Position numbers and translations under genes: made by a program. Of a stretch of 53,696 nt of DNA, positions 145 through 44,551 are shown one piece after another. Numbering within the stretch: position 1 is the first letter of the stretch; each line of letters opens with the position of its first letter. This DNA comes from Candidatus Micrarchaeia archaeon. Its GTDB lineage: Archaea; Micrarchaeota; Micrarchaeia; Norongarragalinales; UBA8480. The stretch spans positions 6,404 to 60,099 of the forward strand of contig JBAMLY010000015.1 of NCBI GenBank assembly GCA_039794045.1, in the 5' to 3' direction. Below the pieces are notes generated by a model. The model ran no database searches, was not told where the DNA came from, and saw only the letters and a program-made list of their open reading frames with translations.

Positions 145-3100
145 ATGTTCGATGACTTGAAGGAGAAGTACGCTGAATTCGTTGAGTCTTTGGAAGAAAA
201 AGGGGTTCCGCGTCCCCAGCTTCTCGTGCCCCTCGCGTTAATTGTTTTAGTGGTGGCAGTCGTTTTCTTGGTTAATCCGTTCGTCCAGCAAGCGATTTCG
301 TCGGCGAAGACTGGTTCTGTGGTGGTGAGCGTGAGAGACCAAGCTGGTTCTCCGCTTGCTAACGCGTTCGTGGAACTCGTTTACTCGGCGAACGGTTCTT
401 CTTTTGCTCAGGCAGTGGCTGGAGGGGACGGGAGGGCGTCGTTTTCTGGCGTGCCGTTGGATGGCTCGGTGGAAGTGCGGGCGAGCGCTTCAGGCTTTCA
501 AAGCAAGAGCGTTGCGCTGTCGCCCGAGGGAGAAACTGTGGTCAACCTCGCAGTAGTCTCTCCTGAAAAGAAGGAGAGAGAGTTTAGGGTTAAAGTTAAG
601 AGCAGCGAGGGTGCTCCAGTCGAGTTTGCTTACGTTACGCTTTCTTTCGATGACGGTTCTTCTACTGGCGTTTTCACTGACGCGAGCGGCTACGCGCAAT
701 TTTCTTTGGACAAGAATTACTCGCACGCCACCGTGAAAGTAGAGGCTCCAGGGTTTGTTTCGTTGGAGAAGAGCGTGGGGGCAGCTGACTTGTCTTCTGG
801 CGTCGCTGAATTCGCGGCAGAACCGGTAGCGCAAGCTACTTCTTCTCCGGAGGCAGTCAAGAAGGGAACGTTTAAAGTCGTGGTCTTCAGCGCGGGAGTT
901 CCAGTAAAGGGCGCGAGAGTGAAGCTGGTTGACTTGGCTGCGAACGAGTTCGGCGCGGGAATTACTGGCGACGATGGAGTAGCCGCTTTTCCGGGAGTTG
1001 TTTTCGGGAAGCAGTTCGTCGTAAGCGTTTCAGCAGATGGTTTCCTGGACAAGCAGTCGCAGGACTACGTTACTTTTTCTTTTGACGGGCAGTCCGAGCA
1101 AGTTTTCTTGGAGCGCAAGATGAGTGGCTCGACTTCAATGGTTTCCTTGGTGGTTGAAGACGAGCAAGGCAACGCAGTGGCTGGCGCGGAGGCAAGCTTT
1201 TTCTTCAAGGACTCAAACAAGCTTGCGCGTAAAGAGGTTTCCGGGGAGGACGGGCGAGTTGCGTTCGAGGCAGTAAAGGGAGTCCAGTTTTACGTTACTG
1301 TTTACAAGCAGGGCTTCCTGCCTGGTTTTCTTGAGGCAGTCAAGGCAGGGGACTCTAAGAAAATGGTTTTGAGAGAGGAAGTGGCTGGCAGCGTTGCAAC
1401 GCTTTCAGTGAAAGTGTTGGCTGACGGCTTGCCTGCGGCGAACGCTGAAGTGGCGCTTTACCGTGAAGGCGGGTTTTTCTTGGGCGTTCCAGTGTTTTAC
1501 GCTGACGCGAGCGGTTTTGCGAGCGTTGTCGTGCCCAACCAATTCAATTCAGCGCCTTACAAGGTTTACGCGAAAGCGGTTTCCGGGACTGCGAGGGGGC
1601 AAAGTGATTTGCTTGAATTGAGTCCTCAGACTAGTGAAGCTAACTTGAGTTTGGTGCTGCGTTCTCCGCCTGCCGCGCTGAACTTGAAAGTCGTTGACTT
1701 GGCTACCGGCAAGCCAGTGCCTGGGGCGAGCACGCAGTTGCTCGTGCAAGGAAACCCTGTTGATTCGTGTACTACCACGCAAGAGGGAGTATGCGTTTTT
1801 TCTGTCGCTGCAAATATTCCGTTTTCTTACGCGGTCAAGGCGTCAGGTTACTTGCCGTTCGCTTCAAGCGAGTTATCTCTCGAGAGCGCTTCCAGTCGCA
1901 ACGAGACTGCTTCTCTTTATCCTCTGGCGAGCGGGTTGCGCGCTCAGTTTCTTGGGTTGTTTAACGCGCGCGGCTTGGTGAGGGAGGCAGCCAATGGCGA
2001 GACTTATTCCGCGAAGTTCGTGGTAAGCGTTCCCAGTGGCTCGGAGCAGGCTGGCTTGTACGTGCGGTTGGGTGACAAGGCTTCGGCGGCAGACGAGATA
2101 GCTTTTATTTCTGATTACGACAAGAGCGCGGCGAGCGTGGTTTACGCTGGCTCTTCCTTTGACTCTTCAGCGCAGTGTCCAAGCGAGACGGCTGGAAGCG
2201 GCGACGAACTCAAATGGGTTTTATTGGTGCTTCCCAAGGGGTTCGTGGGAACCAAGGAAGTTTCTTTTACGGTGGTCGTGCGAAAGCAAGCCGGGGCAAA
2301 CGATTCAATTAACTTTGCTTTCCGTGCCTTCTCGGTGCGCAACAACACGGTTTTCCTTTTCCCGAGTGATGCAGTGGCAGCGCAAGAGCTTCTCGCGAAG
2401 TCGCAGTCTAATGCTTCTCTTTCAACGCAAGACTTTTGCAGGGCAGGCACGGCGAACGCGAGTGTGCCGCTGACTTCCCAGCCCCTTGTTTGCAGCGAGG
2501 GTGGCGAGTTGTGCTACAAGTTTTTCTTTGAGTCAGATGGCGTGGCGAGTTCGAGTGGTTTTCAAGCCACGCTCGGCAAGGAATTTGTTTTGCGTTACGA
2601 GTTGTTGTCTGACTACGTGATTGACTCGTTGTCTCTTTCAAGTGATTATTTGAGGGTTGCAGGTTATTCTTCTCAGGCGGCGAGGTTCGCTGACGACGAA
2701 GCGCCAGTCGTTGCCGCGCAGCCGCAGAAGGTTGCTGTCAACTCAAGGCCTGGAGTGAAGAGCGTGGGCAGTATTACTTTGAAGCCGTTGCGGGCGACGC
2801 AGTCTGGCGTGCTCTTGATTTCTTTCTCTAGCCCGTCGAGCGTTGTCTTGCCCGAGGTTAGGCTGTCTTTCTCAGTGGTTGGTTCTAACTACTTCCGCGT
2901 AAGCGTTTCGCCGCAGTCGCTTCGTGTTGGAGAGAAGCGCAAGGTGACTGTGAGCGTGTTGGACAAGCTTGGACAGCCTGCTTCTGACGCGGTCGTGTCT
3001 TTGTTTGAGTGCGAGGGCGAGCCGTTTGGTGGAAACGAGCCTTCCGCGGTAGTCGGAGATGGTTCTTCGGGTGCTGGCGAGGACGGCAAATACGTTTTCA

Positions 3101-6100
3101 GGGCGAGCCCGGTTGGCGTTGGCGTGGTGGGCGTGCGCGTGAGCCGGGACGACAGCAAGACTTTCGAGGAGTGCCTCGTGCCGGTCACCGCGCAAAACTT
3201 TTTGGTTGCTTCTCCTGAGTCTTTGTCGTTTGAAGGTGATTCGTCTAAGGCGGAAAAGCAAGTGGTTTCCTTGTCTTCTTCTTTGCCTGCGAGCGTGCGC
3301 GTGAGCGCTGCAGTGGACTGTTTTGGGGAAGCCAAGCCAGTAAAGGTTTTCCCGAAGACTTTCACTTTAAGGGAAGGCGTTGACTCTACGGTGACAGTTC
3401 AAGTGATTGAAAACGCTTCCTCTAACGCTCAGTGCGTGGTGCGCTTTGTTGGGAGAGTGAACCCGGAAGTAGTCGCTGAAGTGGAAGTGCCTGTAGACGT
3501 GCGCGTGAGTTGTCCTTCTTGTCCTGTGGTGGCGGAAGGGAAAGTAGTTGGTCCTTCTTCCCTGCCTTCCGCGATATCGCTTGTGGTGGACCCGTACTAC
3601 CGCCGCGATTCGAAGACTTTCGCGGTGAGCTTGGAAAAGGACCCAGTGAGTTGCCAGGTGACTGGCTTCCGCGTGGATCCTTATTCTCAGTACAACGCGC
3701 AGTCCGCTGCCTTTGTTGGAAGTGGGTTGAATGGATTGTGGGGCTGTCAAGCGTGCGGCTTGGGTGCCGGCGTGGGCGCCTTCAACTGCTTTAACTGTGC
3801 GTTGAACGCGCAAATGCCTATGTTGTGCGCTCAATGCAGTTCAGCTGCTTATCCTGCTGGCTCGTTTTACTGCACTGGATGTAATTCGTACGCTGGAGGG
3901 CTTGCCGCGAGTGCGTGGTATTACGGTTCGTCTCCCTTGGTTCAGTGGGGCGCGAGCGGGTACTTTTCAATGCCTTTGAGTCAAGGGGGCGCGGTTGGAG
4001 TTGGCGGTTTTTATGGAACGCCTTTCGCGCAGTCTTTCGCGTCCAATCCCGCGTGGGGCTATCCCTACAACTATAATTATCCTACCTCGCTTTCGCAGTT
4101 GGACACGGCGGCTTACGAGGACGCGGTAGTGGTTGAAGAGTGCACGAAGGACGCGATTACTGTGACTGCGGACTACCGTGGGAGGCAGCCTTTGCCTGGG
4201 GTTGGCTCGTTGGTGGTGTCGCTTGGCGGCGGCCAGAAGCGCACGATTCCGGTCACCGTGTCGGCTGCTTCAGTGGCGGTTACTGGTTTGGGGCCGTTCT
4301 TTACTGGAATGCCTGTTCCCGCGAGCGTGCCGTCTTACTATCAAAACAATTACGCGTGCAACATTGATTCTAGCTACGAGTTCGGTCCCTTCGAGGTCAG
4401 CGAGAGCGAGGACTTTGTTTTCTCCAAGGAAATACAGTACTCGTGTCCGTACTCGTTTGACTTGACTAAGTTTAGTCCGGCGCTTGGCTCTACTGTTTTC
4501 GCTGACGCTTGCAGGATTTCGGGGAGAGTGGCAGGCAATACTGGAAGGCTTTCATTAAACTGCGTTTTCCCGCGCTCTGCTCTTGCCAGGCTTTCTGAGG
4601 GCAAGAATGAAGTGGAACTCGCGTTTGACTTGTCCAGCGCTAAAGCGCCTGGCGCTACTCTCAGCGGCACTGTAAAATTCGTTTTCGTGAAAAAGCACGA
4701 CGCAGACAAGGACCAGCGCTTGAAAGTCAAGAAGCTCTCCGACGAAGTGGCGGTGTGCGACATCGTTAACGGCGAAGAAAAACAAGAGCACGACAAGACG
4801 CCGTTAATAGAAATTGGTTCTGCCGCCGAAATTTCTTATCACTTCCCGTCGGGAAGCACTGACAAGAAGCTTTTCTTGTTCGACGAGGCAGGCAACCTGG
4901 TTTACGGAAGCGCTCCCGAGAGCGGAATATTTCAAGTCACGCCAGAAAAATTCAAGCCGGGTAGGACTTATGCGTGGAGAATGTATTACAAGCTTGACGG
5001 CGCAGAGAAAACGGTTGACTGCAAGTTCAAGACGCCGCCAGGGGAAGCAGCTGAAATGCCGTCCGACTTCGAGGTTCCCGGCGGCGCTGAAAAGTTTTGC
5101 GACACGCCGAGCATGCACCCAATACGCAACATAGTGGTCTTCAACGAAGCGCAGGGGCACAAGGTTGTGCGCCAGAGCCAGCCTCAAACGCATTTTTCGA
5201 CTCCAAGCACTCCAGCCAGCGTTGCAGTATGCATTCGCACGGACTCGCCCGAGGCAGGCAAGCCTAAAGTTGTGTTCGCGCCTGAAAGCGACGATGTTGC
5301 AGGCAAGCTCGGCGACTCAACGGCCAAGTATTCCAGCGTGAAATTTAATTGCACGTCTCTCTCGTTGGACGGCAAGAAATACGCTTTCTGCGTTAGCGAA
5401 ATTGCTCCTGCAAGCGATTTCGGGGCATTGCAGCCAGGCACTTTCGTTGCAGTCGTGGACGCGAGCGAGCTCGTCAAGTCGTTCCCTGATGGTTCACCGA
5501 AGAACGTGGGCCAGTACGCGCGCCGCTTTTACTGCAATGCTTGGCCGCTTGACAAGCGCGCTAGAACGACAACTGAATTTTATGGGTTGGGCGCTGGAAC
5601 GCTGCTTGACTCGGTGGTTTATGCTTCCTCGCGCGGCGTTGACGTTGGCTTTGCTTGCCAGAACCAATCGCAGGGAAACACTGCAAGCGACAGAGTAAAG
5701 TTTTTAGTGGGAGTTCCGCCCTCGAAAACTTCGGCGGCTTCTGGGGCGAAGTCTAAGCCAAGCGACTCGAGCGAGCCGGGCTTTACGGTGGTTTCCCAGG
5801 AGGGGGCAGCCGAAGTTTTTTTTGCGGGTGAAGAGCCTGGAACTGCGTCTAATCCATTCGAGTTGAGGTTGCTTCAAGTGCGGTTCGAGAAAGACGCTAG
5901 TGCGCGGGTTTCGCTCGTTGATTCAAGTGGTTCTTCTGTCGTGCTCGCGACTTTCAGTGGCGTGGTGGCGAACACTGTTCCTTTCTCTAACGCTTTGAAT
6001 AAGGTAGGCAAACTAAAAATGGAGGTAACTTACAACGGCAAGAACTTCGTTTACTGGGCTAACGGCGCGCCCAAGTCAGTGGCCTTCGAGAAATACGAGG

Positions 6101-7257
6101 GAAAAGCGAGTTACTATAAGTTAGTGGGTTCGAGCGCTCAAGAAGGAAGGCCAGCGTCAAAGACTTCTTTTGAGGCGAACTGCGCGCCCGTTGACGCAGC
6201 CAAGTATGGTTATACTAAGGTTAAGTGCAGTTTCAAGGCGAGCGCTGACGGCCACGACGTGGAAGGCAATGAGGTTGAATTGCCTGGTGGTTTCAAGGTG
6301 AGGGTTTACGAGGTGAGCAACTCGCCTTGGTACAAGGACCCCTATAATTGGGGGACTGGCCAGTACGGAAAGGCTTACTTCGTCGTGGAAAAGAATGGCG
6401 AGAGGCTGGACTGCGATGATGCGTGGTCGCTTTTGGGCGGTGGCTTGAAGTGGAAGAGAGGCGACTTGAGGTTGAACAAGAAAGACGTTCAAGAGTGCTT
6501 CTGGGGAGGGTGGAGTTCGTTTAACGAGTACACTCCATTCGTGATGCTGCAGTACGACGGCCCCGGCAACTCTAAAGTGATAGACCAAGCAGAGGGAGTC
6601 ACGCAAATAAATTTGACGATTACCACGTTCTTTTCAGACGACGAGGCTTGGCTTTCGAGCCAGTACAAGTACCAAGCTCCTTCGGCGGGGGGAAGGCAGG
6701 CTTCTTTTCTTTCAACGCGCTCTGACGCTGTGTACAAGATGAGCCAAGGAGACTTGGTGAGGGTTTGGCCTGGCGGTTACTTTGTTTCTTATGCTGGGAG
6801 GAAGGGCTCGACGTACTATTTTATAGTGCGCGACTCGAAAGGAGTAATTGAAGACTGTGACACTAGCATAGCCAGCATTGCGGGCGGCGCGTTAGTGGTG
6901 GGCGGCTTGGTTTTCGTTACTGGAGCGACTGCCGGGCTCGCAGGCGCTCCGATTGCTGGCGTTCTAGTCACTGCCGGTGGCACGGTAAGCGAAATGGGGA
7001 CAGTTCCGTTTGCTTTGGCTTTGGCAACTGGTGGCACTGAGTGGGTTGCGGCTGGCGCTGCCATAAACGGCTTGTTCGACAACGTGGCAGAAGACGCGGA
7101 GCTCAAGCAAGGACAGCACTGCGGGGTGGGCTCAACGACTGGCGTGCAAATAATGCCTTTGAAGGAATACGGCGATGGCTCAATTTGTGTTGCCGTGAAG
7201 AAGGCGAACACTAACCTGCCTTTCCAGGCAAGCGACTTCATTGACAAGTGTCCTTGA
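145..7257 (+). CDS. Giant membrane-anchored surface protein 1 (about 2370 aa; carboxypeptidase regulatory-like and Ig/FN3-like repeats)
   Basis: 7.1-kb ORF (TTG 142 or ATG 145). N-terminal TM helix after LEEKGVP, then six VxDxxGxPhxxAxV...TDxxG...A(x)G[FY] repeats. Four CxxC motifs and a Y/G/P-rich segment near aa 1200-1320, an FN3-like PGRTYAWR motif, and a C-terminal Gly/Ala hydrophobic segment. Confidence 0.85.
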   Translation: MFDDLKEKYAEFVESLEEKGVPRPQLLVPLALIVLVVAVVFLVNPFVQQAISSAKTGSVVVSVRDQAGSPLANAFVELVYSANGSSFAQAVAGGDGRASFSGVPLDGSVEVRASASGFQSKSVALSPEGETVVNLAVVSPEKKEREFRVKVKSSEGAPVEFAYVTLSFDDGSSTGVFTDASGYAQFSLDKNYSHATVKVEAPGFVSLEKSVGAADLSSGVAEFAAEPVAQATSSPEAVKKGTFKVVVFSAGVPVKGARVKLVDLAANEFGAGITGDDGVAAFPGVVFGKQFVVSVSADGFLDKQSQDYVTFSFDGQSEQVFLERKMSGSTSMVSLVVEDEQGNAVAGAEASFFFKDSNKLARKEVSGEDGRVAFEAVKGVQFYVTVYKQGFLPGFLEAVKAGDSKKMVLREEVAGSVATLSVKVLADGLPAANAEVALYREGGFFLGVPVFYADASGFASVVVPNQFNSAPYKVYAKAVSGTARGQSDLLELSPQTSEANLSLVLRSPPAALNLKVVDLATGKPVPGASTQLLVQGNPVDSCTTTQEGVCVFSVAANIPFSYAVKASGYLPFASSELSLESASSRNETASLYPLASGLRAQFLGLFNARGLVREAANGETYSAKFVVSVPSGSEQAGLYVRLGDKASAADEIAFISDYDKSAASVVYAGSSFDSSAQCPSETAGSGDELKWVLLVLPKGFVGTKEVSFTVVVRKQAGANDSINFAFRAFSVRNNTVFLFPSDAVAAQELLAKSQSNASLSTQDFCRAGTANASVPLTSQPLVCSEGGELCYKFFFESDGVASSSGFQATLGKEFVLRYELLSDYVIDSLSLSSDYLRVAGYSSQAARFADDEAPVVAAQPQKVAVNSRPGVKSVGSITLKPLRATQSGVLLISFSSPSSVVLPEVRLSFSVVGSNYFRVSVSPQSLRVGEKRKVTVSVLDKLGQPASDAVVSLFECEGEPFGGNEPSAVVGDGSSGAGEDGKYVFRASPVGVGVVGVRVSRDDSKTFEECLVPVTAQNFLVASPESLSFEGDSSKAEKQVVSLSSSLPASVRVSAAVDCFGEAKPVKVFPKTFTLREGVDSTVTVQVIENASSNAQCVVRFVGRVNPEVVAEVEVPVDVRVSCPSCPVVAEGKVVGPSSLPSAISLVVDPYYRRDSKTFAVSLEKDPVSCQVTGFRVDPYSQYNAQSAAFVGSGLNGLWGCQACGLGAGVGAFNCFNCALNAQMPMLCAQCSSAAYPAGSFYCTGCNSYAGGLAASAWYYGSSPLVQWGASGYFSMPLSQGGAVGVGGFYGTPFAQSFASNPAWGYPYNYNYPTSLSQLDTAAYEDAVVVEECTKDAITVTADYRGRQPLPGVGSLVVSLGGGQKRTIPVTVSAASVAVTGLGPFFTGMPVPASVPSYYQNNYACNIDSSYEFGPFEVSESEDFVFSKEIQYSCPYSFDLTKFSPALGSTVFADACRISGRVAGNTGRLSLNCVFPRSALARLSEGKNEVELAFDLSSAKAPGATLSGTVKFVFVKKHDADKDQRLKVKKLSDEVAVCDIVNGEEKQEHDKTPLIEIGSAAEISYHFPSGSTDKKLFLFDEAGNLVYGSAPESGIFQVTPEKFKPGRTYAWRMYYKLDGAEKTVDCKFKTPPGEAAEMPSDFEVPGGAEKFCDTPSMHPIRNIVVFNEAQGHKVVRQSQPQTHFSTPSTPASVAVCIRTDSPEAGKPKVVFAPESDDVAGKLGDSTAKYSSVKFNCTSLSLDGKKYAFCVSEIAPASDFGALQPGTFVAVVDASELVKSFPDGSPKNVGQYARRFYCNAWPLDKRARTTTEFYGLGAGTLLDSVVYASSRGVDVGFACQNQSQGNTASDRVKFLVGVPPSKTSAASGAKSKPSDSSEPGFTVVSQEGAAEVFFAGEEPGTASNPFELRLLQVRFEKDASARVSLVDSSGSSVVLATFSGVVANTVPFSNALNKVGKLKMEVTYNGKNFVYWANGAPKSVAFEKYEGKASYYKLVGSSAQEGRPASKTSFEANCAPVDAAKYGYTKVKCSFKASADGHDVEGNEVELPGGFKVRVYEVSNSPWYKDPYNWGTGQYGKAYFVVEKNGERLDCDDAWSLLGGGLKWKRGDLRLNKKDVQECFWGGWSSFNEYTPFVMLQYDGPGNSKVIDQAEGVTQINLTITTFFSDDEAWLSSQYKYQAPSAGGRQASFLSTRSDAVYKMSQGDLVRVWPGGYFVSYAGRKGSTYYFIVRDSKGVIEDCDTSIASIAGGALVVGGLVFVTGATAGLAGAPIAGVLVTAGGTVSEMGTVPFALALATGGTEWVAAGAAINGLFDNVAEDAELKQGQHCGVGSTTGVQIMPLKEYGDGSICVAVKKANTNLPFQASDFIDKCP

Positions 7258-7280: not shown

Positions 7281-7702
7281 TAAAGCTTGTCGGCAATCAA
7301 GTGGCTGGCGTAAGCGGCGAGCCCGCAGAACGCCATGCTTTTGTCCAGCGTTGCAGCGAATACAAGCGCGAAGAACGCTAGCGCGGCAGGCCACTTGTGC
7401 GTGATGCCTCTGTGTTGTGGCTTCAGCAAATAGAATGCCAGCGCAGCAATTGCTCCGCCCGCGATTCCGTGTGCTAACCCGAAATAGTTGTTTAACAGGA
7501 AAACTACGGCGATGAAGACGACTAAGAGTGCGGCCTTAAATGTTTTCGTCTTGCGGTGGTCGACGTCCGGCAAGAGCGCGCCGAGTACTACAACGGCTAA
7601 AAGTTGTGGAGTCCAAGCGCTTGAAAGTCCCGTGAAGGAGAGCGCGAGGTTGGCGGCGAAAGCGCAAGAGAAAGCGAAGACGATGTGCGCGAAAGAATTC
7701 AT
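7280..7702 (-). CDS. YdjM-family membrane-bound metal-dependent hydrolase
   Basis: Motifs H(IVFAF), GALLPDVDH, HRGITH and ASHLIAD on a multi-TM scaffold. Confidence 0.85.
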   Translation of the reverse strand: MNSFAHIVFAFSCAFAANLALSFTGLSSAWTPQLLAVVVLGALLPDVDHRKTKTFKAALLVVFIAVVFLLNNYFGLAHGIAGGAIAALAFYLLKPQHRGITHKWPAALAFFALVFAATLDKSMAFCGLAAYASHLIADKL

Positions 7703-8232
7703 AGGAAGTCACGTAGTCTGCCTTTCAAATCAACGTGGTTTTCTAGCACTTCGTCAATGAAATGGTTTTTTTCTGCTGCGAGTTCCCGCAACCGTTGTGG
7801 AGAGACTATTTTGAAGTCACAGCGCAGTCTCATGCTTTGCTCTAAGCGCTTCAGTAGACGCTGGCAGTACTCTGCCCTCATGTTGGTTACTACGAGAAAG
7901 TTTGCTTGCCTGCGTGAAAGCGAGTCTGTCGCGTAAATAGCTATTGCTTCCAGGCGCGCGTCTGAAGGGAGCGCTTGAAATGCTTTGCCTGCGAATAAGG
8001 CGGTGCGCATGCAGCGAGCGAATGGGTTTTCCTCGTTCAAGGAATAGTACGCTCCATTTCCCTTCATTTCTTTTTTCAGCACGCTTTCGGCAAGCATTTT
8101 CCTGCATATTACGCTCGCAGAAGCAGGGCTTATCTTGAGTTGCCGCGCGAGTCCTTGCACGTGCGCCTCCCTGCCTTCCTCCAAGAAAAAGCGCAGAATC
8201 CGCCAGGCGACAGACGATTCCAAAGCCTTCAT
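7699..8232 (-). CDS. Winged-HTH regulator fused to a degenerate nucleotidyltransferase-like domain
   Basis: N-terminal HVQGLARQLKISPASASVICRKM...YYSLN wHTH. The C-terminal part follows the MNT pattern, but hhYGS..G..DhD reads IAIYATDSLSRRQANFLVV. Start placed at ATG 8232 (the track starts at 8274, inside the promoter region). Confidence 0.7.
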   Translation of the reverse strand: MKALESSVAWRILRFFLEEGREAHVQGLARQLKISPASASVICRKMLAESVLKKEMKGNGAYYSLNEENPFARCMRTALFAGKAFQALPSDARLEAIAIYATDSLSRRQANFLVVTNMRAEYCQRLLKRLEQSMRLRCDFKIVSPQRLRELAAEKNHFIDEVLENHVDLKGRLRDFL

Positions 8233-8261
8233 AATTGTTCTATTAAATGAATTATTGTTTG

Positions 8262-8313
8262 AATTAAAAAACATTTCGAGGACTTTTTCTGCGCGTTTAC
8301 GAATGTTTTTATA
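8262..8313. promoter_or_regulatory. Divergent promoter pair with a 9-bp inverted repeat
   Basis: AAAAACATT (8267-8275) and AATGTTTTT (8302-8310). Each arm runs into a TATA-like box: TTTTTTAA on the minus strand, TTTTTATA (8306-8313) on the plus strand. Confidence 0.55.
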
Positions 8314-8374
8314 GGCTTGAATTCCTCTATTTCTTTGGTTTGAGCGCGTTCGCGCTTGCGGGGGCTTGGAGTTA

Positions 8375-11300
8375 ATGGCAGAAGAAAAGGGGCTTTACTA
8401 TGCTTTGGAGGACAAGTATTATTCTTTGATGGAGTGGATTGAAGGCAAGCTCCACATTCCTGTCGTCAGGTATTTCGTTGACCCGATTGAAAGCCGTGGA
8501 ATTCCTTCCATGCCTGTTTTCTTGCTTGCCGTATTGCTTTTCGCTGGCGTAATCGCTTTTATCGCTTTTCCTTTCCTTTCTACTGCTGGCCTTCAAACCA
8601 CTATTTTGGATGTTCAAGTAATGGCCAACGGCGCGCCTTTGGATGGAGCCCAGGTTACTCTTTTGTACAACGGCGAGCCGTTCGCTTCAGCGGTTTCTTC
8701 TGATGGTGTTGCTTCTTTTGAAAACGTGCCGGTTCGCGGGGGCTACTCGGTTCGCGTGAGCGCGCCTGGTTACGCGAAATTTGAGAAGCCAGTGACGCTT
8801 TCAAGCGAGCCGGTCTCATTTACTGCTTCTCTTCAGTCAGAGGGCGGCGCCGTGATCGCTACTCCAACGCCTTCGGGGCGCGAGTACAACTTTGTCGTCG
8901 TCGTAACCGACACGGCAGGCAAGCCGGTAACGAATGCAGTGGTCGACTTTTCGAGTCCTTCGCCTGGCGGAGACAGTGGGAGCTCAACTACCAATGCGCA
9001 GGGCGAGGCGGTGTTGAAGCTTTCCACTCAAGAACAAATATTGTTGATTGACGCGCACGCTGACGGTTACTTGGACGAGCGCAAGGCCGCGCGCGCTAAA
9101 GACGGCGGAGTAAAAATAGAGTTGACTTCTTCTGGCAATGCCTTCTTTGACTCTAATGGCGACAACTCTGGTGGCGCGAGCGAGGGAGGGCAAGCTTCCT
9201 TTGAAGGCGTTGACGTGCTCGCCACCATCCGCGATGACGCGGGCAATGGCGTGGCAGTAAAATGCGTTCTCTACGACGAGCAAACTTCCACGCCTTTGGA
9301 CTCTGCAGCCAGTGATGTGGGAATTTGTTCTTTCAAGAAAGCCGCTCAACCAGGTGAAAGCGTTTACGTTGAAGTAACTCCTAAAGATTCTTCTTTCCTC
9401 TCGAAAACGTCGGACTCCGGCATAGCGCAAGAAGGGAGGCTCTTAGAGTTTAAAATTACTTTAGAGCGCGCTACCCCGCCTTCCACTCAAGAAATAAGGG
9501 TTTCGTTCAAGGACGAGGAAGGAAAACCTGTTTCGAGCGCGAGCGTGAACTTGTACTTGCTTGAATCAAACAAGTTGCTTGGCTCTTCTTCTACTGACGA
9601 GAATGGCTTGGCTTCGTTCGAGGTTTCTTCAGCGATTCCTTTGACGAGTGTTTACGTGACCGCTTACGCTGAGGGATTCCTGCCTTTGAGCCGCGAGCTC
9701 TCTGGCAAAGACTCTTCCTTTGTGCTTCAAGCTGCGGTGACTGGCAACAACGCTGACTTGGCGGTGCGCGTTAAAGACGACGACGGCGTGCTGGTTTCTG
9801 GTGCTACTGTAGTGCTTTTGGATGGCGAGGGAAAAATTCTGGGCATGCCTGCGGGAACGACTGACTCGGCTGGAATCGCTGACTTTCACGGCGTTCCAGT
9901 GGGAGTTGAGTTGCGTGCTCGTGCTGCGAGCGCACCCCGCTTTGGTGAAAGCGATGTTTTCTCGTTGTCGTTGGGAGAAGAGGAGAGGACAGTGGATGTT
10001 TTCCTTGCTCCAGCGCGTGGCTCGATAAGAGTTTTCGCGGAAGACCTGGCTTCGGGAAAGCCTGTCGCAGCGTTGAAGGCTACTGCCAAGCTAGCGCGGG
10101 ACGGAACGCTTGAAGGAAGTTGTGTTACTGACGACAACGGCTCTTGCATTATTCAGGACGTCGTGGCTGGAAAGGAAGTAATCCTGGTCGTTAGCGGGCC
10201 GGGCTACGTTGAATTTACTTCCTCGCCTTTTGCGGTTCCCGCCAACGAGATAATGGAAAAGAAGTTGAAGTTGTTGCCTTCCTCGCTCTCGAATCAAACG
10301 CAAGTGTTCTTGGCTGAGGTGAGGGACGAGCAAGGAGTGGATGTTACTGGAGCTGGCGTGCTTTCCAAGGCGGGCTATTATTGGGTGCGCGTCGTCGCCA
10401 ACTTTCCTAAAGGAGTGGAAGAGCAGGGAATAATGCTTCGCGTGGGAGACAAGCCAACGCCAGCAGAAGAACCGGCTTACATTGTTTCGTTTGACTACGC
10501 TCCAGTCGGCGTTGCTGCTCCCGTTGGGTTTGCGGGGGCTTCTTATTCTCCTTCCGGCGACTCTTCTTCTGACTTGATGAACAGCGACGTTTCTGGTGGC
10601 GCGAAGTTCGTTGGAGTGCGGTTTTCTGGTCTTGCTGGAAGCGCGGAATTGAAGGCACGAATTTTCGTGAAGCCAACGGCGCGGCCTGGAATAGACAAGG
10701 TTAAGTTATACTACCGCGCTTGGTCGCGTTCTGGGGAAGTGTTTTCTTACGAGCCCGCAGACGCCGTGTTGGGGAATTCGCGTAAGGCGGCGGACCGCGA
10801 CTCGCTCTACGCTGAATCAAGGCTGGCTTCTTATGACGTCGTGGACGGCGTTCTAGTGTGCAATGACGCTGGAACGGCGTGCGCTGCGTTGTCGTTTTCT
10901 TCTCCTGAAAACACTGTTCCTTCTCCTTCGCCGTTTCAAGCGGTTCTCGGCAGGGACTTTACCGTGAAATACGATTTACGCGTTTTCGGCGCGTTCGAGG
11001 CGTCAACTGCTTACGCGCGCTTGTGGAACCCTGACGAGACTTTGAAGCTCAAAGACTTTTCAGGCGATGGCACGAGTCAAAAAATTTCAGACTTCGAGGA
11101 ACGCGTTATTCTTTCAAGTGCCAAGCAAAACTATTCTGGTTCGTTTGCCGTAACCCCGATTCTGCCCAACCAGAACGCCAGGCTCGCCTTCGAGTTCGGC
11201 GATGGCAGGGGAAGAATTTTGTTGAGTGACGCTAACACCGTAATAGTGCAAGGCAAGGGCAAGCTATTCATAACTGGCTTGTCTCCAGCGTCCTTGACTG

Positions 11301-14300
11301 CAGGCAAGCGCAAGGACTTGTCGTTGCGCGTCGTATCTGATTTGGGGGTGTCAATCGAAGACGCTAAAGTCGCGTTGCAGGAAATGGATGAAGCAGAGGC
11401 AGGCTCGCCTTTCGCTGGCTCGCCGCCTTCTCCGTTGCTCGGTGACGCGAGCGAGGACAACGGAAGAGACGGCTTCTACCGCTTTTCCAAGCTCAAGCCA
11501 GTCGCTCCAGGAAAGTTCTTGGTAGTCGTTTCGCGGGAGGGCTTCAAGGAAGCGACGGCGGAAGTGCAAGTAAAGACAACTGACTTCTTTTCGTTCGACC
11601 CAGAAGATGGAATAGAGTTGGACTGCAGGGGAGGAACGCTTAAAGTAAAGAATTTGCTTGACGCCAACGCGCCCCTTGACATAGTGGTTGGGCCTGGCGT
11701 GGACGCCCTTCCTTGCGTGAACGTTACTGGGCCGGGAGTGGTGAAAAAGCTAGAGCGTTCTCCTGGCGCGGCGGCCGGCTCTAATAAAGGACACCAATAC
11801 ATTCCAAGCGGTTCTTCTGCTGGTTCTTTCGTGGAAGCAGTTTATCACGTGGAGAACGTCAAGCCTGGCGCGACGAAGACGCTTAAGCTCACGCCGACCT
11901 CTAATGGCGATTGCACCATCGCTTTCTCTTCAAGTGACGCCCGCAGTGGCTCTAACTACTACTCTGAGTACGAGGTTTCGAACTTGTGCAACGCCTTTAA
12001 TACTTCCAGCGTGTCCCAAGTTCTCAACGTAACAGGCTATGTGTTGCGCGTTCAAGGCAACTTGTGGGTAGGCCCAGACGGCAAGAGCGGGCCCGCGCGC
12101 CTCCTGATTCCTGCTCCGAATGACACGCGCAGTGGAGACAATGTTTCTGCGACTGTGTGGTTCACTAACTTGGATGCTTCCGCGCACTCTTTCTACTGCC
12201 AGAACCGAGCGAAAGTCAGGGTGCTCAGCGTTTCCGCTCAACAGTTTCCGGCGAGCAGCGTAGTGAACTACACGTTCACGAGGCCGGGAATGTATTATTG
12301 TTACTTGGACAACGGAGACCTCGCGAAAATCAAGGTCAAGAGCGCGTGCCCCCACCACGGCGTCAACTACTACGCAGGCTTCATGGCCGCCTGCCTCTTC
12401 AAGGAAAACTTGTTGAAGGGCACCGCCCTCGGCGACATCGTCAACTTCGGTGCAAGCGCGTGGGAAGTCGCGGCAAGCATTCCAATTCACTACGACCTCG
12501 TGACTGGAACGCAGACTGGTGTGCCTAACTATCCCAACCCTTACTTGTCTACGGCGACAGTGGCCCAGTACGGCTTGCCGGTGTGCGGCATTCAAGGCTA
12601 TCCTTACGCGAACTTGCCTCCAAACTATGCTTACAACCAGCAAAACAATTACTTTTCTCCAAACGGCCAGCCAGTAACCATGCCGCAGGGAATGCCTTTG
12701 AGCCCACTTTCAACGCAGTGTTATGGCACGGGCTTTTACGAGAACATTAATTACGCGCCTCCTTCCACGACGACTGGCGCGGACTGCAAGACAGTAGGAA
12801 ACAAGATGACTTGCACGGTGCGCATCAGTCCAATGATGCGGTCTGGCGGCGTGCCGTTCGTGTTAGACAACGTTATACTAGACCAAATGCCTTTCCTGCG
12901 CGTTTCAAAGAAAATTGCGGGGAGCGGCAGCAACGACTGCTTCCAGTTGTGGGACTTGGACAACTACTACGGCACAAAGATAGGCGAGGCGCTCGGCAAA
13001 GGCTTTTTCCAAGTCACTGGCTTTGGCGCTTACCCGCTCGCGCGTTCTTTCGCGGTCGTCTTTAACCCCGACGACAAAGATAGCTGCATTAACTACGTCT
13101 ACAAAGACGGAAAACTTGTTGTTGAACCAGCGGGCGCCAGCGAGCAAGAAATGAAGATAAGCACTGGCATTGGCAGGGAACTCCGCATCGTCCTTAAAGT
13201 GTTGCCCCTCGAAAACGACGCGATGGCGCCGTACTACCTCACTGCAGTGCCCGCGGGTGGAAAGGTTGTGGCTCGCTCTTACGCAGACAAGGACTATTCA
13301 GTCGAGCCTTACTTGTTCGTCAACAACATTCCTGACCGCTCGGTTACGTTTTATTACGTTGACCAGAACGGCAACACCGTGGCTGAAACTGCTGGCGCGC
13401 CCACAAAGGCGACCGAGCAAAGCATTGTCTTGTTCGCGCCAAAAATTGTTGACAAGCAAAAAACGGTTGTCACGAAGCTCAAGATAGGAAGCGCTCCAGA
13501 AATAAGGTTCGACGACAAAAACAATTTTGTTGCATCTGACTCGCCCGCGTCTTTCGCCGTCAAAGCAATGGACGCCTTAAAGGGAACGGCGGTGCAGAAC
13601 GTAACGCTCTTGGACGTCGTTGGAAGCGTGGGCGCGGAAGACGGCCTTGCTCCAGCCCTCAAGTGTAGTGGCACCAAGTTCTGCACTCAAGAAGAAACAG
13701 AGAAGGCAGTGAAGGCAATCACTGAAGCAATTCAAAGCGCAGTCAAGCAGTCTTACTCTACCATGCCCTTCGTTTTAAAGCGCAGCTTCCTTGACGCGCA
13801 AGACCTCGGCTTCCAAAACTGTTTGGACGCGCTAGCCCGCGAGCTGATTGCGGACCGCGCGAGCGAAGCGGTTTGCAAGAACTTCTTCAACTTGTGCAAC
13901 AAAGACGAGTTCGACGCGGAAGAAGAAGAGATAGAGGAAGGAGAAGCAGAGGGAGTAAGTTATTCGTCGGTATCTGCTGCCGCAGGAGGAGCAATAAAGC
14001 AAGTAATCTGTCAAGGCACTCAAATGGGCCAGCAAGTGCAAGGAATAGAAAGCATTTTCGGCAACGCGCAGGCGCGCAACCTCATACGCCAAGCGTTCGG
14101 CCGCGCGCTGGGTTCAGGAACGTTCACGACCCCTGCGCCGACGCAGTTGCTTGAAAAAATCAGCTTGCCCGAGTTCTACTTCATGCTCAAGAAGGCCGAC
14201 CCGCTCGGCGGTGGAGTGGAAGGCACTGGCTTGAAGTTGTTCCACTTGAAAGTGAAAAGCATTGATGACTTGCTTGCGGCCGCGAGCCAGCAAACCGGCT

Positions 14301-22400: not shown

Positions 22401-24686
22401 AACGCCGCCCAAGCGAGCACCGCTTATTCTTCCTTCCTCGCGGCAATGAAGTCCTTCCTTGACTCCGTGACCGCGGACGCGGCAACGCACCAGCGCTTCT
22501 GCCAGTCTACTGTGGGCAGCAGCGAGGAAAACGCGTTGAAAGTAGTAGAAAAAACAATAGTAATACAAAAAACGGCTGCAACTCAGTCCATCGCAGAGTT
22601 CAACGAGCAATTCCTCAAAACAGCGAGGGAAATCCTGCCCGACTACGCTTCAGGCGAGAACTTCTTCCAAGGAATTCCAAGCGAAAGCATTGCTGGCTGC
22701 GGCTGGTACAAAGTCAGCGTCGCGCTCGATGCCTGCAAGGAAATGGGTTCGCACGCCAGCCAGGACTGGAAGAAGCGCGTGGGACTACGCGTGCGCATAG
22801 AAAGAATGAGCGAGAGCGACGAATGCAAGCCCACGCTCGCCAACGCCTTGCTGTTCTTGAAGGCAAGCTCTCCAGACTCTCTCGGAGTAACAGTGGGAAA
22901 CCGCGTGGCAGTATGGCCAGACGAAGTAAGCGGCAAGCGCCTGCTCTCAGTAGTTGACAAGACAAAAGAAAACTGGGACAAAGTCAAGGCAAGCCAGCCT
23001 TCAACGTGGCTTTACTTGTTCGACGTAGGCGTCCTCGCCCTTGGCCCCTACGCAGACCAAGCCGACGAAGCAGACGTGAAGACCGCGCAAACGCTTTACC
23101 AAATGATTTACGGACAGCAAGCAAAGTCAGCCGCAAAGTCAACTTACTACGACGACGCAACATTCTGCAGCGCAAACGCGCCACAGCAACTCAAGTGGAT
23201 TGCGGTAGGCGGTTCTTCTCTCGCCGCCGCAGGCACGCTACTCGCCTTCCTGCCGGCAGGCGCGTCCCAAGTAGTTTCGGCGTTCCTCGTCCCACTCGGC
23301 TTGAAGCTCGCGGCAGGCACGGCAACCACGGCAGCACTCTGCGTGGGAAGCGCGGCCGCTTACGGAGAGAAAGGAACGTGCGCTCGCTACAACGACTGCA
23401 TTCGCAGCGCGATTTTCGGCGCAGCAACTGCAGCCATTCCCACGGCTGGCGAGCTCGCGGCATTCAAGACTGCTTCTGCAGCGTTGAAGACTACTGCGGC
23501 GCTCACTGCCTCGACTGCGGGCGTGGTGAGCGCCGTCAACTTGCTTGCGCCAGACGGCCCCGAAACCACTGACGCCACGATTCCATTAGTTGCAACGGGC
23601 TACGCGGCAGCCACTACTGTTTCTTTCTCGCGAGCGCAAGCTCGCGCGGCTTCGCCGGTCGCCAAACTCGAACAACAAGGCGCGCTATTGCCTGGCTCGC
23701 CGTTCGGAAGAGAAGTTGAATCCCTCATTGCTCAGGGAACAAGTTGGGAGGACGCAGTCGCGTCAGCGAGAGAAAAACTCGTGGCAGAAAAGGCGCAGGA
23801 ACTCGCGAGAATGAAGCCTTCCGCGCTTGGAGAAATTGCTTACGCGCACAGCATAGACCCAGCACTCGCTGCTTCCGACGCCGCCGTCCAGAAAAGCCTT
23901 GCCACTGCCATCGTATTAGAGGAAACCAGGCCTGCCTCCGTGCTGCAGCAAATGGAGAACGTGAAGCTCTTCAACGGAAAAATTCAGTTCGCTGAACCAG
24001 CGTTCGCCGCTGGCGCTGGTATCTTGCCGCAACAGCAAGCCAAGCTAACGCAGTTGCTTGACCCCAAGTCGTTCGCCCAACAAACGCCTTCGCAGGCGTT
24101 CCTTGGACTGACTGACGCCGAGAAAACAGTTTTCAAGGCCGCGGCAGAGAAGACGAGCAAGGCGAGAAACGCTTTAGTGAAGAGCTCGAACGCTTTCAAG
24201 GCAGGCGCGCAAATAGGCGCTACGCTATTGTTCCAGGTTGACGCGCGCCCCGTCATGGCCAAGCTTGACCCCGCCCTGCCAACTCATTTCGTTGCCTACC
24301 ACTTGACGAGGAAAGGCGATTCCTTCGTTCCAACTGCCTTCAAGCTCTGCGTCACTGAAAAACGCGTTGGAGTAGAGCCGGACGAGGACGGCTGCGTTAA
24401 AGGGCAATCGTTTTACTTAGCTGACTTGTGCAACTCGGATTACTCGGCTTGCTTGTACGAAACGCCGGTCTACACTTCCTCGCCTTCCGCGCCAGCCTAC
24501 AACTTGGTTGTTGCGGTGAACGACGAGAGAATCGACGCCAAGGCATTGCTTGAGTCTGTGTTCTTGCCTGACGCCAAGCCGTTGACGGCAAACATTGGCG
24601 GAGGAACGCTTTCGCCGCAGAAAATCGCTGAACTCGCGCAAACGAGGAACGAGAAGGGAAGCGGCAAGGCGTTCGCCGGAAAGTGA
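16449..24686 (+). CDS. Giant membrane-anchored surface protein 3 (2745 aa)
   Basis: LEARGIP plus TM helix, six repeats collinear with proteins 1 and 2, a Y/Q/P-rich segment, and a long Ala/Gly-rich hydrophobic region near the C-terminus. Starts 16 nt after protein 2. Confidence 0.85.
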   Translation: MSLQDFFVGLQEKWEEFLEWSDENGLPFREWNDALEARGIPAMPVFALAVAVVFFVAFFLVAGFPQIPGVTVQPTATVKLTVLSEEGIGVPNALVQLKANGKIIAAKNTDSRGIVTFSDVPAGELTAVASAADFKQDYVSVTTKGGEASAQKLVLVRVSSFKVVVSFEVQGPQSANFSVWDENKTVLIDSASGATASFELEPSKNYLVRVEAPQYTPEERLVPVGTTNAAPIYVRLFKTSEPRTASLHVLVYDDKGLTGAPIANASVQVRANNSEAVIATGVTDEEGAIDAVEAPVGSLVTVYASAPGYLSTETEAFQVPEGSVYKRVRLARKTEENSKAIAVSVTTASGEYVSSPTVRLYCGGRKRDEKTPASGTTSFDAALGEKCLVTAFKEGFLPASKQVTAKGEATLVLKEATYLNSASLEVSVVDSAGNPVPMASTTVFNYSGEPLGIPEKTTGLSGTTSYYLPEGDYVVRASSGNSEGSAKTRVSFNANNSVQVKLAPLKAVAAVTVQDYYSNASIAGAKVTLKDASGATASCLTSLQGCSLEAQEGPAVVSVAAQGYEDYSGTLELRGGTTTNYSVVLVNSRVSADVKLAFLGVFDSKGRQVNKLSPATVYTARYLLKNPGIPFYSAEAFVLLGSASSSLESEDAEIIEYSADGASITAGADFSSAADFSVEATATATPQNYSQSNSSGGVAVLPSTKGTSLASNAEGWKWVKFVFPQFNGTKELRVKIRTKPVASGALSLSHRSAFATARGVLRDPEDAAAGTSKSPLLANLKPSATYEVFFAGECQNGLCVQAFLEGQQGRSADSLEALIPEQFKVRFSVASASGQATLTLSTESNALQLVDASAGATKVAAKSPAGETQELSIKSGGDGAFNVKAKAFAKDARLVLNAESGDAKYEKIFSVRVVSPKNSLKVSLKPERLIALQENTIVFKVTDTLNNPVTNARVVIGSQEDALGSTVEAGPATGKNAEPGTYVASHVSPRAHGSVQWKVEAEGYKAKSGEVDAIARKIIELSTRSLSLNADGQPASFTVSNLLENEVTVSASVAADENPQYTEFVVTPATAKLKPREEKQFQLTARPKPGVLTVAEKDSTLTEKTSGRVHVTARVAEAAQDEDARFSCTNALQRSALSSLLEYSDDALDFSLNPPRASKQSKKITITNNAPYPVLVNQQSLAPNVRVTPLSLTIPANGKAEFTVTAGLPPESANDKCIVDDSTTESDIEFYASFQGISATKVVKAKIALTASTRCYLADGLVYNLPVPVVFKFPAGTKVRGAPADDGSIPVLLPDGNKMVFFEGTSIYGPYAVERSQPYYDSSYSFDSYPQYGEYGSMVYLQTQTGLTPLQFAQSPYGSIPFYPASAAAPYYQNPQAYFGGSTQTQTQTTSVTLQQAVVPAGVGFVMSSKFARQLAIDPVTLASNAVAVTFPVVAFLELPVDARPVPDAAGVRYNLRNAYVVLPAGLPTMRAPSYGNIVQVPPGTPLLFGRTGSNYGSMELSYDEDTYIDFPRDAVVQQLPSGVQATLSECAQVKVKSLDDKMTDSTPAAKTVFVEGGTLFGANKNRVIVPAQARIKVSTCLDVTEEQQKLFCSSRRQPMTLVLPPGYRGPPSRFTIAFDSCVPMDVKGARGSQVSAVRKIYFEPTAKGQQLSSGGQQLYQVSVPEGSQLCVLPCDASGTVSVTAYGDYLDFSPKTINFTLSDSRQSAQAELCLYNTGSELLQPFNPESYVELISSPTDDEAFKSAVKKEGIYFAGQVGKPANLPLSFENKACNKLVVEASLPSSGDWTDAYGCVKKEGTITGSIKFHAKSTKWQGSVSVPVTIKIVRQAKNCNSPAALDKANSLHSFFVNYADSVLSFKAPGHYRFVILANNLLEPATISSNLDSSSPIKCDFPQQLAPGEAKLAKCISLKPAENFQLKITAKPARAASLDFLVKVNVFNAQDSVYDSTPLGELAPQTTQQTNQTAAQSPPQAYYVVCEKYFCNAAQASTAYSSFLAAMKSFLDSVTADAATHQRFCQSTVGSSEENALKVVEKTIVIQKTAATQSIAEFNEQFLKTAREILPDYASGENFFQGIPSESIAGCGWYKVSVALDACKEMGSHASQDWKKRVGLRVRIERMSESDECKPTLANALLFLKASSPDSLGVTVGNRVAVWPDEVSGKRLLSVVDKTKENWDKVKASQPSTWLYLFDVGVLALGPYADQADEADVKTAQTLYQMIYGQQAKSAAKSTYYDDATFCSANAPQQLKWIAVGGSSLAAAGTLLAFLPAGASQVVSAFLVPLGLKLAAGTATTAALCVGSAAAYGEKGTCARYNDCIRSAIFGAATAAIPTAGELAAFKTASAALKTTAALTASTAGVVSAVNLLAPDGPETTDATIPLVATGYAAATTVSFSRAQARAASPVAKLEQQGALLPGSPFGREVESLIAQGTSWEDAVASAREKLVAEKAQELARMKPSALGEIAYAHSIDPALAASDAAVQKSLATAIVLEETRPASVLQQMENVKLFNGKIQFAEPAFAAGAGILPQQQAKLTQLLDPKSFAQQTPSQAFLGLTDAEKTVFKAAAEKTSKARNALVKSSNAFKAGAQIGATLLFQVDARPVMAKLDPALPTHFVAYHLTRKGDSFVPTAFKLCVTEKRVGVEPDEDGCVKGQSFYLADLCNSDYSACLYETPVYTSSPSAPAYNLVVAVNDERIDAKALLESVFLPDAKPLTANIGGGTLSPQKIAELAQTRNEKGSGKAFAGK

Positions 24687-43375: not shown

Positions 43376-43611
43376 GGGTCTTTAGCTCAGCCTGGCAACT
43401 CTTTTGCTGCGGCGCTCCTTGCGCGTTGGGAGGCCTCGCCTCCTCGCGAGAGCGTTAACGGAAAAAGGGTTGGGTAAATAGAGCAGCGGGCTTCGGACGC
43501 GCGCAATTCAACGAGAAACGCGAGCGGAAGAAACCCGAAGGCCGGGGGTTCGAAGACAGCCTCTTTTTTTCTCTTTTTGAGAAAAAGCTGTGGAAAGTCC
43601 CCCAAGACCCG
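43376..43611 (+). tRNA. trnR-TCG: tRNA-Arg(TCG) with three introns: 43396-43477 (19/20), 43497-43532 (37/38), 43555-43597 (59/60)
   Basis: Acceptor GGGTCTT/AAGACCC, D stem GCTC/GAGC, loop CT-TCG-G|A, T arm GGGGG-TTCGAA|T-CCCCC, discriminator G. BHB central helices are GCCT/GGGT, CTTC/GAAG and a relaxed TTCG/GGAA. Confidence 0.9.
43542..43604 (+). repeat. 63-nt direct repeat, copy 1 (T arm plus 59/60 intron), identical to 44432-44494
   Basis: Base-by-base comparison of the two copies. Confidence 0.95.
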
Positions 43612-43634
43612 CTTTTTAATTTGTTGGCGCCCTA

Positions 43635-44501: not shown

Positions 44502-44551
44502 CTCTTTTTTTTTCGCTTGGTTTTAAAACCGTTTAACGCCATAATTTTTTC

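Follow-up and report, generated by a model that had tools for sequence, protein, structure and literature searches.

A cysteine-bracketed apolar loop at the far end of a giant surface protein of a Micrarchaeota-like archaeon and its possible contact with a host membrane

What could a loop enlarged by 72 mostly small and aliphatic residues be doing at the far end of a giant archaeal surface protein, about 2,200 residues away from the membrane in which that protein is anchored? The question is raised by the gene g1 (145..7257, + strand), located in a 53,696-nucleotide (nt) chromosomal stretch of a Micrarchaeota-like DPANN archaeon (Candidatus Micrarchaeia archaeon, assembly GCA_039794045.1, contig JBAMLY010000015.1, positions 6,404 to 60,099 of the forward strand; hereafter, the window). 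In the attachment of DPANN archaea to their hosts and the exchange of material between the two, giant surface proteins are the usual suspects, and no membrane-active element has been pinned down in them. In culture, Micrarchaeota live in attachment to a host (PMC8975820, PMC5498576); for giant surface proteins of DPANN archaea, a role in breaching the host membrane has been proposed (PMC6642349). A sequence-only reading of the window had described the tip of g1 as a duplicated, Cys-clamped module carrying a glycine-zipper hydrophobic hairpin that resembles fusion loops and pore-formers and may insert into a host membrane. The analysis reported here finds the apolar stretch itself to be real and exceptional, and leads to the tentative proposal that it is a membrane-partitioning loop that could grip the membrane of a host cell.

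A long apolar insert at the tip of g1

Residue numbers throughout count the TTG at nt 142 as amino acid (aa) 1, so that g1 is an unbroken open reading frame (142/145-7257) of 2371 aa with 42 Cys; the ATG at 145, with GGAGG upstream, is likely the true start and gives the 2370 aa called in other assemblies. The Cys that delimit the two loops of the sequence-only reading (nt 6412, 6496, 6856 and 7120) are C2091, C2119, C2239 and C2327 and are indeed spaced by 28 and 88 aa. Within the longer loop, which a putative C2239-C2327 disulfide would close, lies the apolar insert, aa 2241-2312 (72 residues; 6862..7077, +), composed of 22% Ala, 21% Gly, 12.5% Val, 11% Thr and 10% Leu, with E2284 and E2300 as its sole charges; this composition bears out the earlier description of an almost uncharged Gly/Ala/Val stretch. 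Lys and Arg are absent between R2230/K2233 and K2322, and both flanks of the insert are acidic. The first 43 residues (2241-2283) hold no Asp, Glu, Lys, Arg, His, Asn or Gln and form the second-longest such run in the 26,711 aa of 14 family proteins, surpassed only by the Gly/Tyr linker of the relative P0002 and exceeding every N-terminal anchor of the 14 proteins (23-38 aa). On the C-terminal side, the insert is followed by the acidic segment DNVAEDAELKQGQH and then C2327 (7078..7122, +), and by a 44-aa tail (7123..7254, +) that contains C2349 and C2370, is not hydrophobic and has no basic cluster.

The apolar stretch is real, in frame and exceptional. By codon-usage log-odds, the g1 frame scores +0.45 bits/codon across the insert (+0.41 in a control region), and the other five frames score about +0.1 or below. 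The tip sequence is identical, without substitutions, in four other assemblies of one near-clonal population, and the single-nucleotide polymorphisms (SNPs) of the giant genes across assemblies are mostly synonymous (8/10 in g2 and g3, 6/9 in g1); the invariant tip thus offers no signal of selection. Elsewhere in the gene, the window copy of g1 differs from all four other assemblies by S771N, and in assembly GCA_049969435.1 (JBMFOV010000004.1) a run of N at ~3060-3360 of g1 results in two calls, of 971 and 1,298 aa.

By its motifs and domains, g1 is a clear member of a family of giant, N-terminally anchored proteins of Micrarchaeota and Iainarchaeota, with the leader, the [KR]G[IVL]P motif, the transmembrane (TM) anchor, the array of CarboxypepD_reg domains and the stalk of ~1,100 aa that characterize the family. 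Two paralogues lie in the window, g2 (8366-16432; 2,688 aa) and g3 (16449-24686; 2,745 aa); the three proteins are paralogous across the first ~1,100 residues, where they share the leader, a strongly hydrophobic anchor, five CarboxypepD_reg domains and MG (macroglobulin)/Big_1-like domains, and are unrelated past that point. With a profile of this common region, relatives are retrieved solely from assemblies of Candidatus Micrarchaeota and Iainarchaeota. The closest to g1, and its only orthologue among them, is P0002 (NCBI HY991_04905; 36% identity over aa 1-1181), a sequence truncated at 1,489 aa; the distal halves are unrelated between members, and the family is defined by the N-terminal ~1,100 residues only. 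The N-terminal anchoring assumed in the sequence-only reading is confirmed: the anchor of g1, LLVPLALIVLVVAVVFLVNPFV (aa 27-48; 220..285, +), follows a conserved leader ending in K-G-V-P, has a Kyte-Doolittle hydropathy in 19-residue windows (KD19) of up to 3.05 and a predicted apparent free energy of insertion (dGapp) of -2.4 kcal/mol, and together with the leader and the motif is conserved in 14 family members. It is separated by ~2,195 aa from the insert, which is thus located at the far end of the protein. A single N-terminal anchor is the family topology, with no other hydrophobic segment in g2, P0003, P0004 and L001b.

The insert is marginally hydrophobic, to a degree that varies with the scale used: it comes close to the insertion threshold but falls far short of every dedicated anchor of the organism. 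Its KD19 is at most 2.0 (2.8-3.05 in the true anchors of the window), and a simple Hessa sum gives +1.5 (-1.9 to -4.0 in anchors). A fuller Hessa model with length- and position-dependent dGapp, re-implemented for this analysis and checked on internal controls only, predicts -0.19 kcal/mol for aa 2241-2267 (segment 1), which corresponds to roughly 50% insertion, +1.16 for aa 2256-2282 (segment 2) and +2.59 for aa 2290-2312 (segment 3); the reference values are -2.4 to -3.8 for anchors, -1.1 to -1.4 for signal peptides and -1.7 to +1.1 for multi-pass helices. By this measure, insertion would be borderline for segment 1 and unfavourable for the other two. Because the simple sum implied clear non-insertion and the fuller model a borderline case, hydrophobicity is not used here to exclude a second anchor in the cell's own membrane. 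No other segment of g1 save the N-terminal anchor exceeds a KD19 of 1.6 or falls below 2.3 in predicted dGapp.

The main reason to consider the feature functional is that an apolar stretch recurs in g3 (23166..23342, +), where it is rich in Ala, Gly and Leu, bounded by C2240 and C2298, and has predicted dGapp values of +0.9, +1.2 and +1.9. Counted from the N-terminus, C2240 of g3 is one residue off the position of C2239 in g1, and long Gly/Ala apolar stretches were found only in these two among the family proteins examined. The two stretches show no likeness past composition, their alignment score being reached by 160 of 300 shuffles, and are analogous, not demonstrably homologous. The g3 stretch is followed by ~400 Ala-rich, helical-looking residues (aa 2345-2745; 23481-24683) with four Cys and no sequon, a region that could lie on the other side of the membrane from the rest of the protein.

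Glycine-zipper membrane segments belong to the GxxxGxxxG class, which includes VacA and other channel formers. The insert resembles them in being uncharged and rich in Gly, Ala, Val and Thr but lacks their defining i,i+4 spacing: GxxxG occurs once (2.73 expected from shuffles), GxxxGxxxG not at all, and [GAS]xxx[GAS]xxx[GAS] three times (6.35 expected), so that the glycine-zipper label of the sequence-only reading has to be rejected. Instead, Gly-Gly lags are depleted at 2-4 (1 vs 2.8 expected at lag 4) and peak at 6-7, 12-13 and 18-19, with 15 pairs at lags 6, 12 and 18 combined (7.4 expected; p=0.0045 in a post hoc test). Three GG doublets of the insert each border on 4-6 beta-branched or aliphatic residues; GG doublets as such are not enriched (4 vs 2.9 expected). 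Two single-sequence AlphaFold runs on the tip, for which the earlier reading had suggested structure prediction and comparison, reached predicted local distance difference test (pLDDT) scores of 33.6 and 37.1, and 21-37 across the insert, too low for a meaningful structural comparison. Only the last ~35 residues of the tip exceed pLDDT 50 (54-66), as a predicted beta-hairpin.

Host membrane, own membrane or protein core

We tentatively favour a reading in which the apolar insert forms a loop that partitions into the host membrane and takes hold of it. Under this proposal, g1 would be a giant surface protein of stalk-like build, fixed in its own membrane by the conserved N-terminal anchor, and, after its last beta-rich module, would carry a C2239-C2327 loop enlarged by the 72-residue insert of small and aliphatic side chains. 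Given the marginal hydrophobicity of the insert, most chains would cross the Sec channel without being retained. A polar-free stretch of such length cannot, as we robustly infer, sit exposed to water and has to be buried in either lipid or protein; outside the cell, ~40-70 consecutive residues without a polar side chain beyond Ser/Thr would not be able to remain in solvent, and the loop would partition into a bilayer, most likely that of a partner or host cell within reach of the stalk. There it would serve as a hydrophobic grapple, and the flanking acidic residues together with the Cys pair would keep the two hairpin ends at the outer face. The single-anchor topology, the marginal hydrophobicity, the absence of Lys and Arg and the DPANN lifestyle all fit this proposal, and the missing basic residues, along with the acidic flanks, would not be typical of a hairpin inserted by Sec with its turn in the cytoplasm. 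Should the g1 loop and its g3 analogue indeed enter the host bilayer, a short, testable element of 72 residues, amenable to deletion and to synthesis, would become available for the host-contact step.

Several observations weigh against the host-membrane proposal. With a predicted dGapp near zero, a sizeable fraction of the chains could lodge in the producer's own membrane. On the Wimley-White octanol scale, 19-residue windows of the insert score between -1.0 and +1.0, compared with -8 to -14 for the anchors, and the interfacial total over the 72 aa is -0.26 kcal/mol, a value bettered by several ordinary beta-strand segments of g1. The helix-packing motif GxxxG is not enriched in the insert, and the Gly periodicity of 6-7 together with low-confidence AlphaFold strands hints at beta structure. 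Since the tip has no homologue, there is no evidence from conservation or covariation. Finally, the genes for pyruvate:ferredoxin oxidoreductase hint at anoxia, which bears on the putative disulfide.

The main competing explanation, somewhat unlikely in our estimate, is that segment 1, alone or as a hairpin, is caught by the lateral gate of Sec and becomes a second anchor in the producer's membrane, so that g1 would be an arch of ~2,200 residues tethered at both ends. The predicted dGapp of aa 2241-2267 does fall within the range of the multi-pass helices of the window (YdjM, DUF2298), the KD19 maximum is compatible with this explanation, and the topology is self-consistent, given that an N-out/C-out hairpin would leave all four nearby Cys and the acidic flanks outside; in g3, moreover, the stretch is followed by basic residues and by the sequon-free Ala-rich region, which is possibly cytoplasmic. 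However, the single-span anchors and signal peptides of the window are far more hydrophobic (dGapp of -1.1 to -3.8, octanol values of -5.7 to -14), segments 2 and 3 are unfavourable (+1.2 and +2.6), and the charge distribution runs counter to the positive-inside rule, with no Lys or Arg between aa 2233 and 2322 and only E2284 in the candidate turns that would face the cytoplasm. A comparable distal segment is also missing in most other family members, and the 59 non-hydrophobic residues that follow the stretch exclude a terminal sorting signal. Sequon density was of no help as a topology marker for the giant proteins, being ~5 per 1,000, the same as in cytoplasmic proteins.

The burial that the length of the stretch demands might also be achieved without any membrane, if beta-hairpins or a solenoid-like or cross-beta core were covered by oligomerisation (homotypic or with g3) or packed against neighbouring modules, capping or bundling the ends of the stalks. 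The Gly lags and the flanked GG doublets described above point in this direction, as do the weak Wimley-White partitioning, the beta-rich surroundings and the short strands that both AlphaFold runs place at ALVV/LVFV and VLVTA, which at pLDDT below 35 were given no weight. Yet 43 residues without a polar side chain beyond Ser/Thr are unusual for a soluble beta domain, the other ~24,000 extracellular residues of the family offer nothing comparable, the periodicity statistic is post hoc and modest, the GG doublets are not in excess, and no solenoid or hexapeptide family of Pfam or NCBIfam matches; on balance, a protein core is unlikely. If either a second anchor or an oligomerisation core turned out to be correct, the tip would represent ordinary surface-protein architecture, and either way the glycine-zipper and pore-former labels are removed. 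The strain specificity of the element limits generalisation. Lineage-specific drift, that is, a tolerated Gly/Ala-rich expansion with no specific role in a fast-evolving, strain-specific tip, would be in line with the orphan status of the entire C-terminal 1,170 aa, with the restriction of family similarity to the N-terminal ~1,100 aa and with the presence of other low-complexity uncharged linkers in g1, g2, g3 and P0002. We consider it very unlikely: the stretch is not a simple repeat, its codon usage is normal, Cys brackets occur at an equal position in both g1 and g3, the few SNPs are mostly synonymous, and a functionless exposed apolar stretch of 72 aa would be costly through aggregation.

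Relatives of the tip and comparison with known systems

The tip has no detectable relatives. No homologue was recovered when aa 2001-2371 and aa 1201-2371 were compared with a word index of 5.8 billion proteins, and an exhaustive phmmer search of the tip against 1.84 billion representatives returned nothing for the insert. The single marginal phmmer match covers aa 2012-2086, outside the insert, and involves the SH3b repeats of a clostridial lysozyme (E=4.4e-4); an SH3b identity of this region was dropped when the Pfam SH3_3 model gave no confirmation. Genome contigs of GTDB and metagenome contigs of JGI, queried with the tip and with whole g1, yielded nothing, and none of the relatives collected with the N-terminal family profile carries the tip. 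At E-values of up to 10, Pfam and NCBIfam gave only noise (the best matches, a cyanobacterial domain with two TM segments and a type VI secretion system effector family, have E ~1.7 and are driven by composition), and a PDB sequence search with the tip, likewise at E up to 10, gave nothing significant. No paralogue was found by tblastn in the window and six related loci. The whole C-terminal part of g1, 1,170 aa, is without homologues. At the DNA level, no direct or inverted repeat of at least 28 nt in the window touches 6373-7257, the one exception being a 35-nt match of 71% complementarity that chance explains; with neither a template repeat nor a cassette copy of the tip DNA in the window, the tip was rejected as the target of a diversity-generating retroelement.

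The duplication postulated in the sequence-only reading is not supported statistically. It concerned 'module 1', YFVVEKNGERLDCD … QEC with C2091 and C2119 (6373..6498, +), and the beta-like part of 'module 2', …VRVWPGGYFVSYAGRKGSTYYFIVRDSKGVIEDCD, running up to C2239, the Cys that opens the long loop (6754..6861, +). Picked by hand, the pair has a BLASTP E-value of 0.016 over 24 aa, a score reached by 4 of 500 shuffles. In an unbiased all-against-all scan of 50-aa windows in the C-terminal 970 residues, it scores 35 and ranks fifth of 3,828, no better than the maxima of ten shuffles (35-49), and tblastn does not recover it at E<10. A short pattern, [YFW][FYW]x[VLI]x4-9[DNE]C, has three occurrences in g1 where 0.06 are expected, although it was derived post hoc from two of these; the remaining, third copy (aa 1615; …YAWRMYYKLDGAEKTVDC…; 4909..5100, +) is weakly similar to the other two and is followed by a 26-aa loop, C1627-C1653. 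The motif resembles, by inspection, the last two strands of an Ig/FN3-like sandwich, and no family model confirms the resemblance. That the second loop is an expanded one is a plausible but unproven part of the earlier claim: the 88-aa loop is ~60 aa longer than the two that follow similar motifs (26 aa after the third copy and 28 aa in module 1).

Among characterized systems, the closest in general design are the SPEARE proteins of Nanohaloarchaeota, giant proteins with one TM segment and variable adhesion-type outer parts for which an action on the host membrane has been proposed (Hamm et al., 2019; PMC6642349). Like these, g1 is a giant, mostly extracytoplasmic, single-anchored DPANN protein, and its tip is a strain-specific variation on the known theme of giant DPANN surface proteins. 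However, there is no sequence similarity, the Pfam matches of g1 include no laminin-G, serine-protease, toxin-BC-like or restriction-endonuclease domains, and what is proposed here to act on the membrane is a short apolar loop in place of a toxin-like domain. An assignment of g1 to the SPEARE proteins was rejected, as none of the domains of their combination (laminin-G, serine-protease and type III restriction-enzyme-like) is found among these matches. Very large carrier proteins with a short hydrophobic C-terminal region also occur among the polymorphic toxins, an example being Tse5-CT, the membrane-inserting C-terminal domain of an Rhs effector of Pseudomonas aeruginosa, which spontaneously partitions into lipid from aqueous solution (PMC9637101). 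By analogy, the insert could work like Tse5-CT or a fusion peptide; no homology to Tse5-CT was found, and g1 has neither an Rhs or other delivery shell nor a demarcation motif, nor is it followed by an immunity gene in the same orientation.

The insert shares with membrane fusogens, including archaeal fusexins, a marginally hydrophobic, small-residue-rich sequence on an extracellular protein with Cys nearby. Internal fusion loops comprise ~10-20 residues at the tip of domain II of a recognisable three-domain class II beta fold, and fusion peptides of the terminal type come after a cleavage site; the loop of g1 has 72 residues, and no Pfam match to class II fusogens or fusexins (HAP2/Fsx1) was obtained for the whole protein or the tip. 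In pore-forming colicins and the T domain of diphtheria toxin, the hydrophobic hairpin is buried in an all-helical bundle of amphipathic helices. Like them, the insert offers ~40 uncharged residues, rich in Ala, Gly and Val, from which a hairpin could form, and has acidic residues in or close to the turn and on the flanks; its surroundings are beta-rich. Pfam has no colicin match, and the NCBIfam model BTH_I2691 scores 7 bits against a cut-off of 150 (E=1.7). For contact-dependent or polymorphic toxins, there is no toxin family match in Pfam or NCBIfam, and the next genes are convergent. A classical C-terminal sorting signal for archaeosortase or exosortase, of the PGF-CTERM kind, is ruled out as well: 59 residues separate the stretch from the stop, the Cys-containing tail is acidic, and no CTERM model of NCBIfam matches. 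Thus, in Pfam, NCBIfam, PDB and the homologue searches, no evidence ties the tip to fusogens, colicins, pore-formers or contact-dependent toxins, and pore formation or fusion is not specifically supported. The broader idea that the Cys-bracketed loops at residue ~2240 of g1 and g3 constitute a host-membrane-inserting, fusion-peptide-like or pore-seeding device on stalks of ~2,200 residues, unrelated to known fusogens and toxins, is improbable. If correct, it would give molecular access to the way in which cytoplasmic contact between DPANN cells and their hosts is opened.

Other features of the giant proteins and their genomic neighbourhood

The leader is present in all family members (g1, 145-285; g2, 8375-8600; g3, 16449-16660; L001-L006; P0002-P0004), consists of 20-80 aa of the type …LE[DE]K[YW]…GIP.Y…LE and ends in [KR]-G-[IVL]-P-x-x-P immediately before the anchor. 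Its K/R-G position is reminiscent of where archaeal class III (prepilin-like) signal peptides are cleaved, although this leader would be unusually long for one of them. Farther along g1, aa 1180-1320 (3679-4101) form a linker of 141 uncharged residues rich in Tyr, Gly, Ala, Ser, Asn and Gln, with four CxxC pairs (3745-3882) at a regular spacing of 13-15 residues, none followed by His. Uncharged Tyr/Pro/Gln/Asn linkers occupy the equivalent place in g2 (aa 1378-1458) and g3 (aa 1335-1409), as does an 80-aa Gly/Tyr run in P0002; this linker marks the border between the conserved stalk and the variable distal half. The C-termini of g2 (16200-16429), P0003 and P0004 carry Cys-rich, knot-like modules, not apolar stretches, and the distal tips of the giant family thus appear to be modular and diverse. 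In addition, a moderately hydrophobic Cys motif, G-x-Y-F-G-x-C … D-C-L-P-x-T-A-x-G-L-L, was recognized by eye ~2,070-2,200 residues from the N-terminus in giant proteins of Iainarchaeota and related ones (L003, aa ~2075-2115; L006, aa ~2060-2105; L005, aa ~2187-2215).

The genes of the window include those for a family B DNA polymerase, subunits of pyruvate:ferredoxin oxidoreductase, Sua5, aNOP56, prolyl-tRNA synthetase and a DUF424 protein. Between g1 and g2, convergent with g1, lies a gene for a small multi-pass membrane hydrolase of the YdjM family (PF04307; 7280-7702, -), in an operon with a MarR-like gene (7699-8274). In Micrarchaeota MAG_54 (locus L001, 4690-5169), a YdjM homologue is located directly upstream of a giant-family gene, with an overlap of 4 nt, and the YdjM-family gene may be functionally linked to the giant proteins.

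The first 71 nt of the window are the end of a gene whose complete version is available in a locus of the same population (L011, 17631-20423) and encodes a 512-aa Cys-rich protein with a prepilin-like N-terminus (MRKA/FIAAPLIG…). In that locus, on the same strand as g1 and upstream of it, are also encoded a 167-aa highly charged protein and, three genes upstream of g1, a 175-aa protein of the exosortase/archaeosortase family (TIGR04178, 36 bits against a cut-off of 23), and beyond these a divergent T2SSE-type ATPase with an intein. Taken together, the prepilin-like, T2SSE-type and archaeosortase genes indicate that the giant genes adjoin a pilus-like and sortase-like cluster.

Elsewhere in the window, two genes of unassigned function (43635-44270 and 44552-45154) have upstream regions and 5' ends (43521-43731 and 44411-44639) that are 87-90% identical, indicating a recent tandem duplication.

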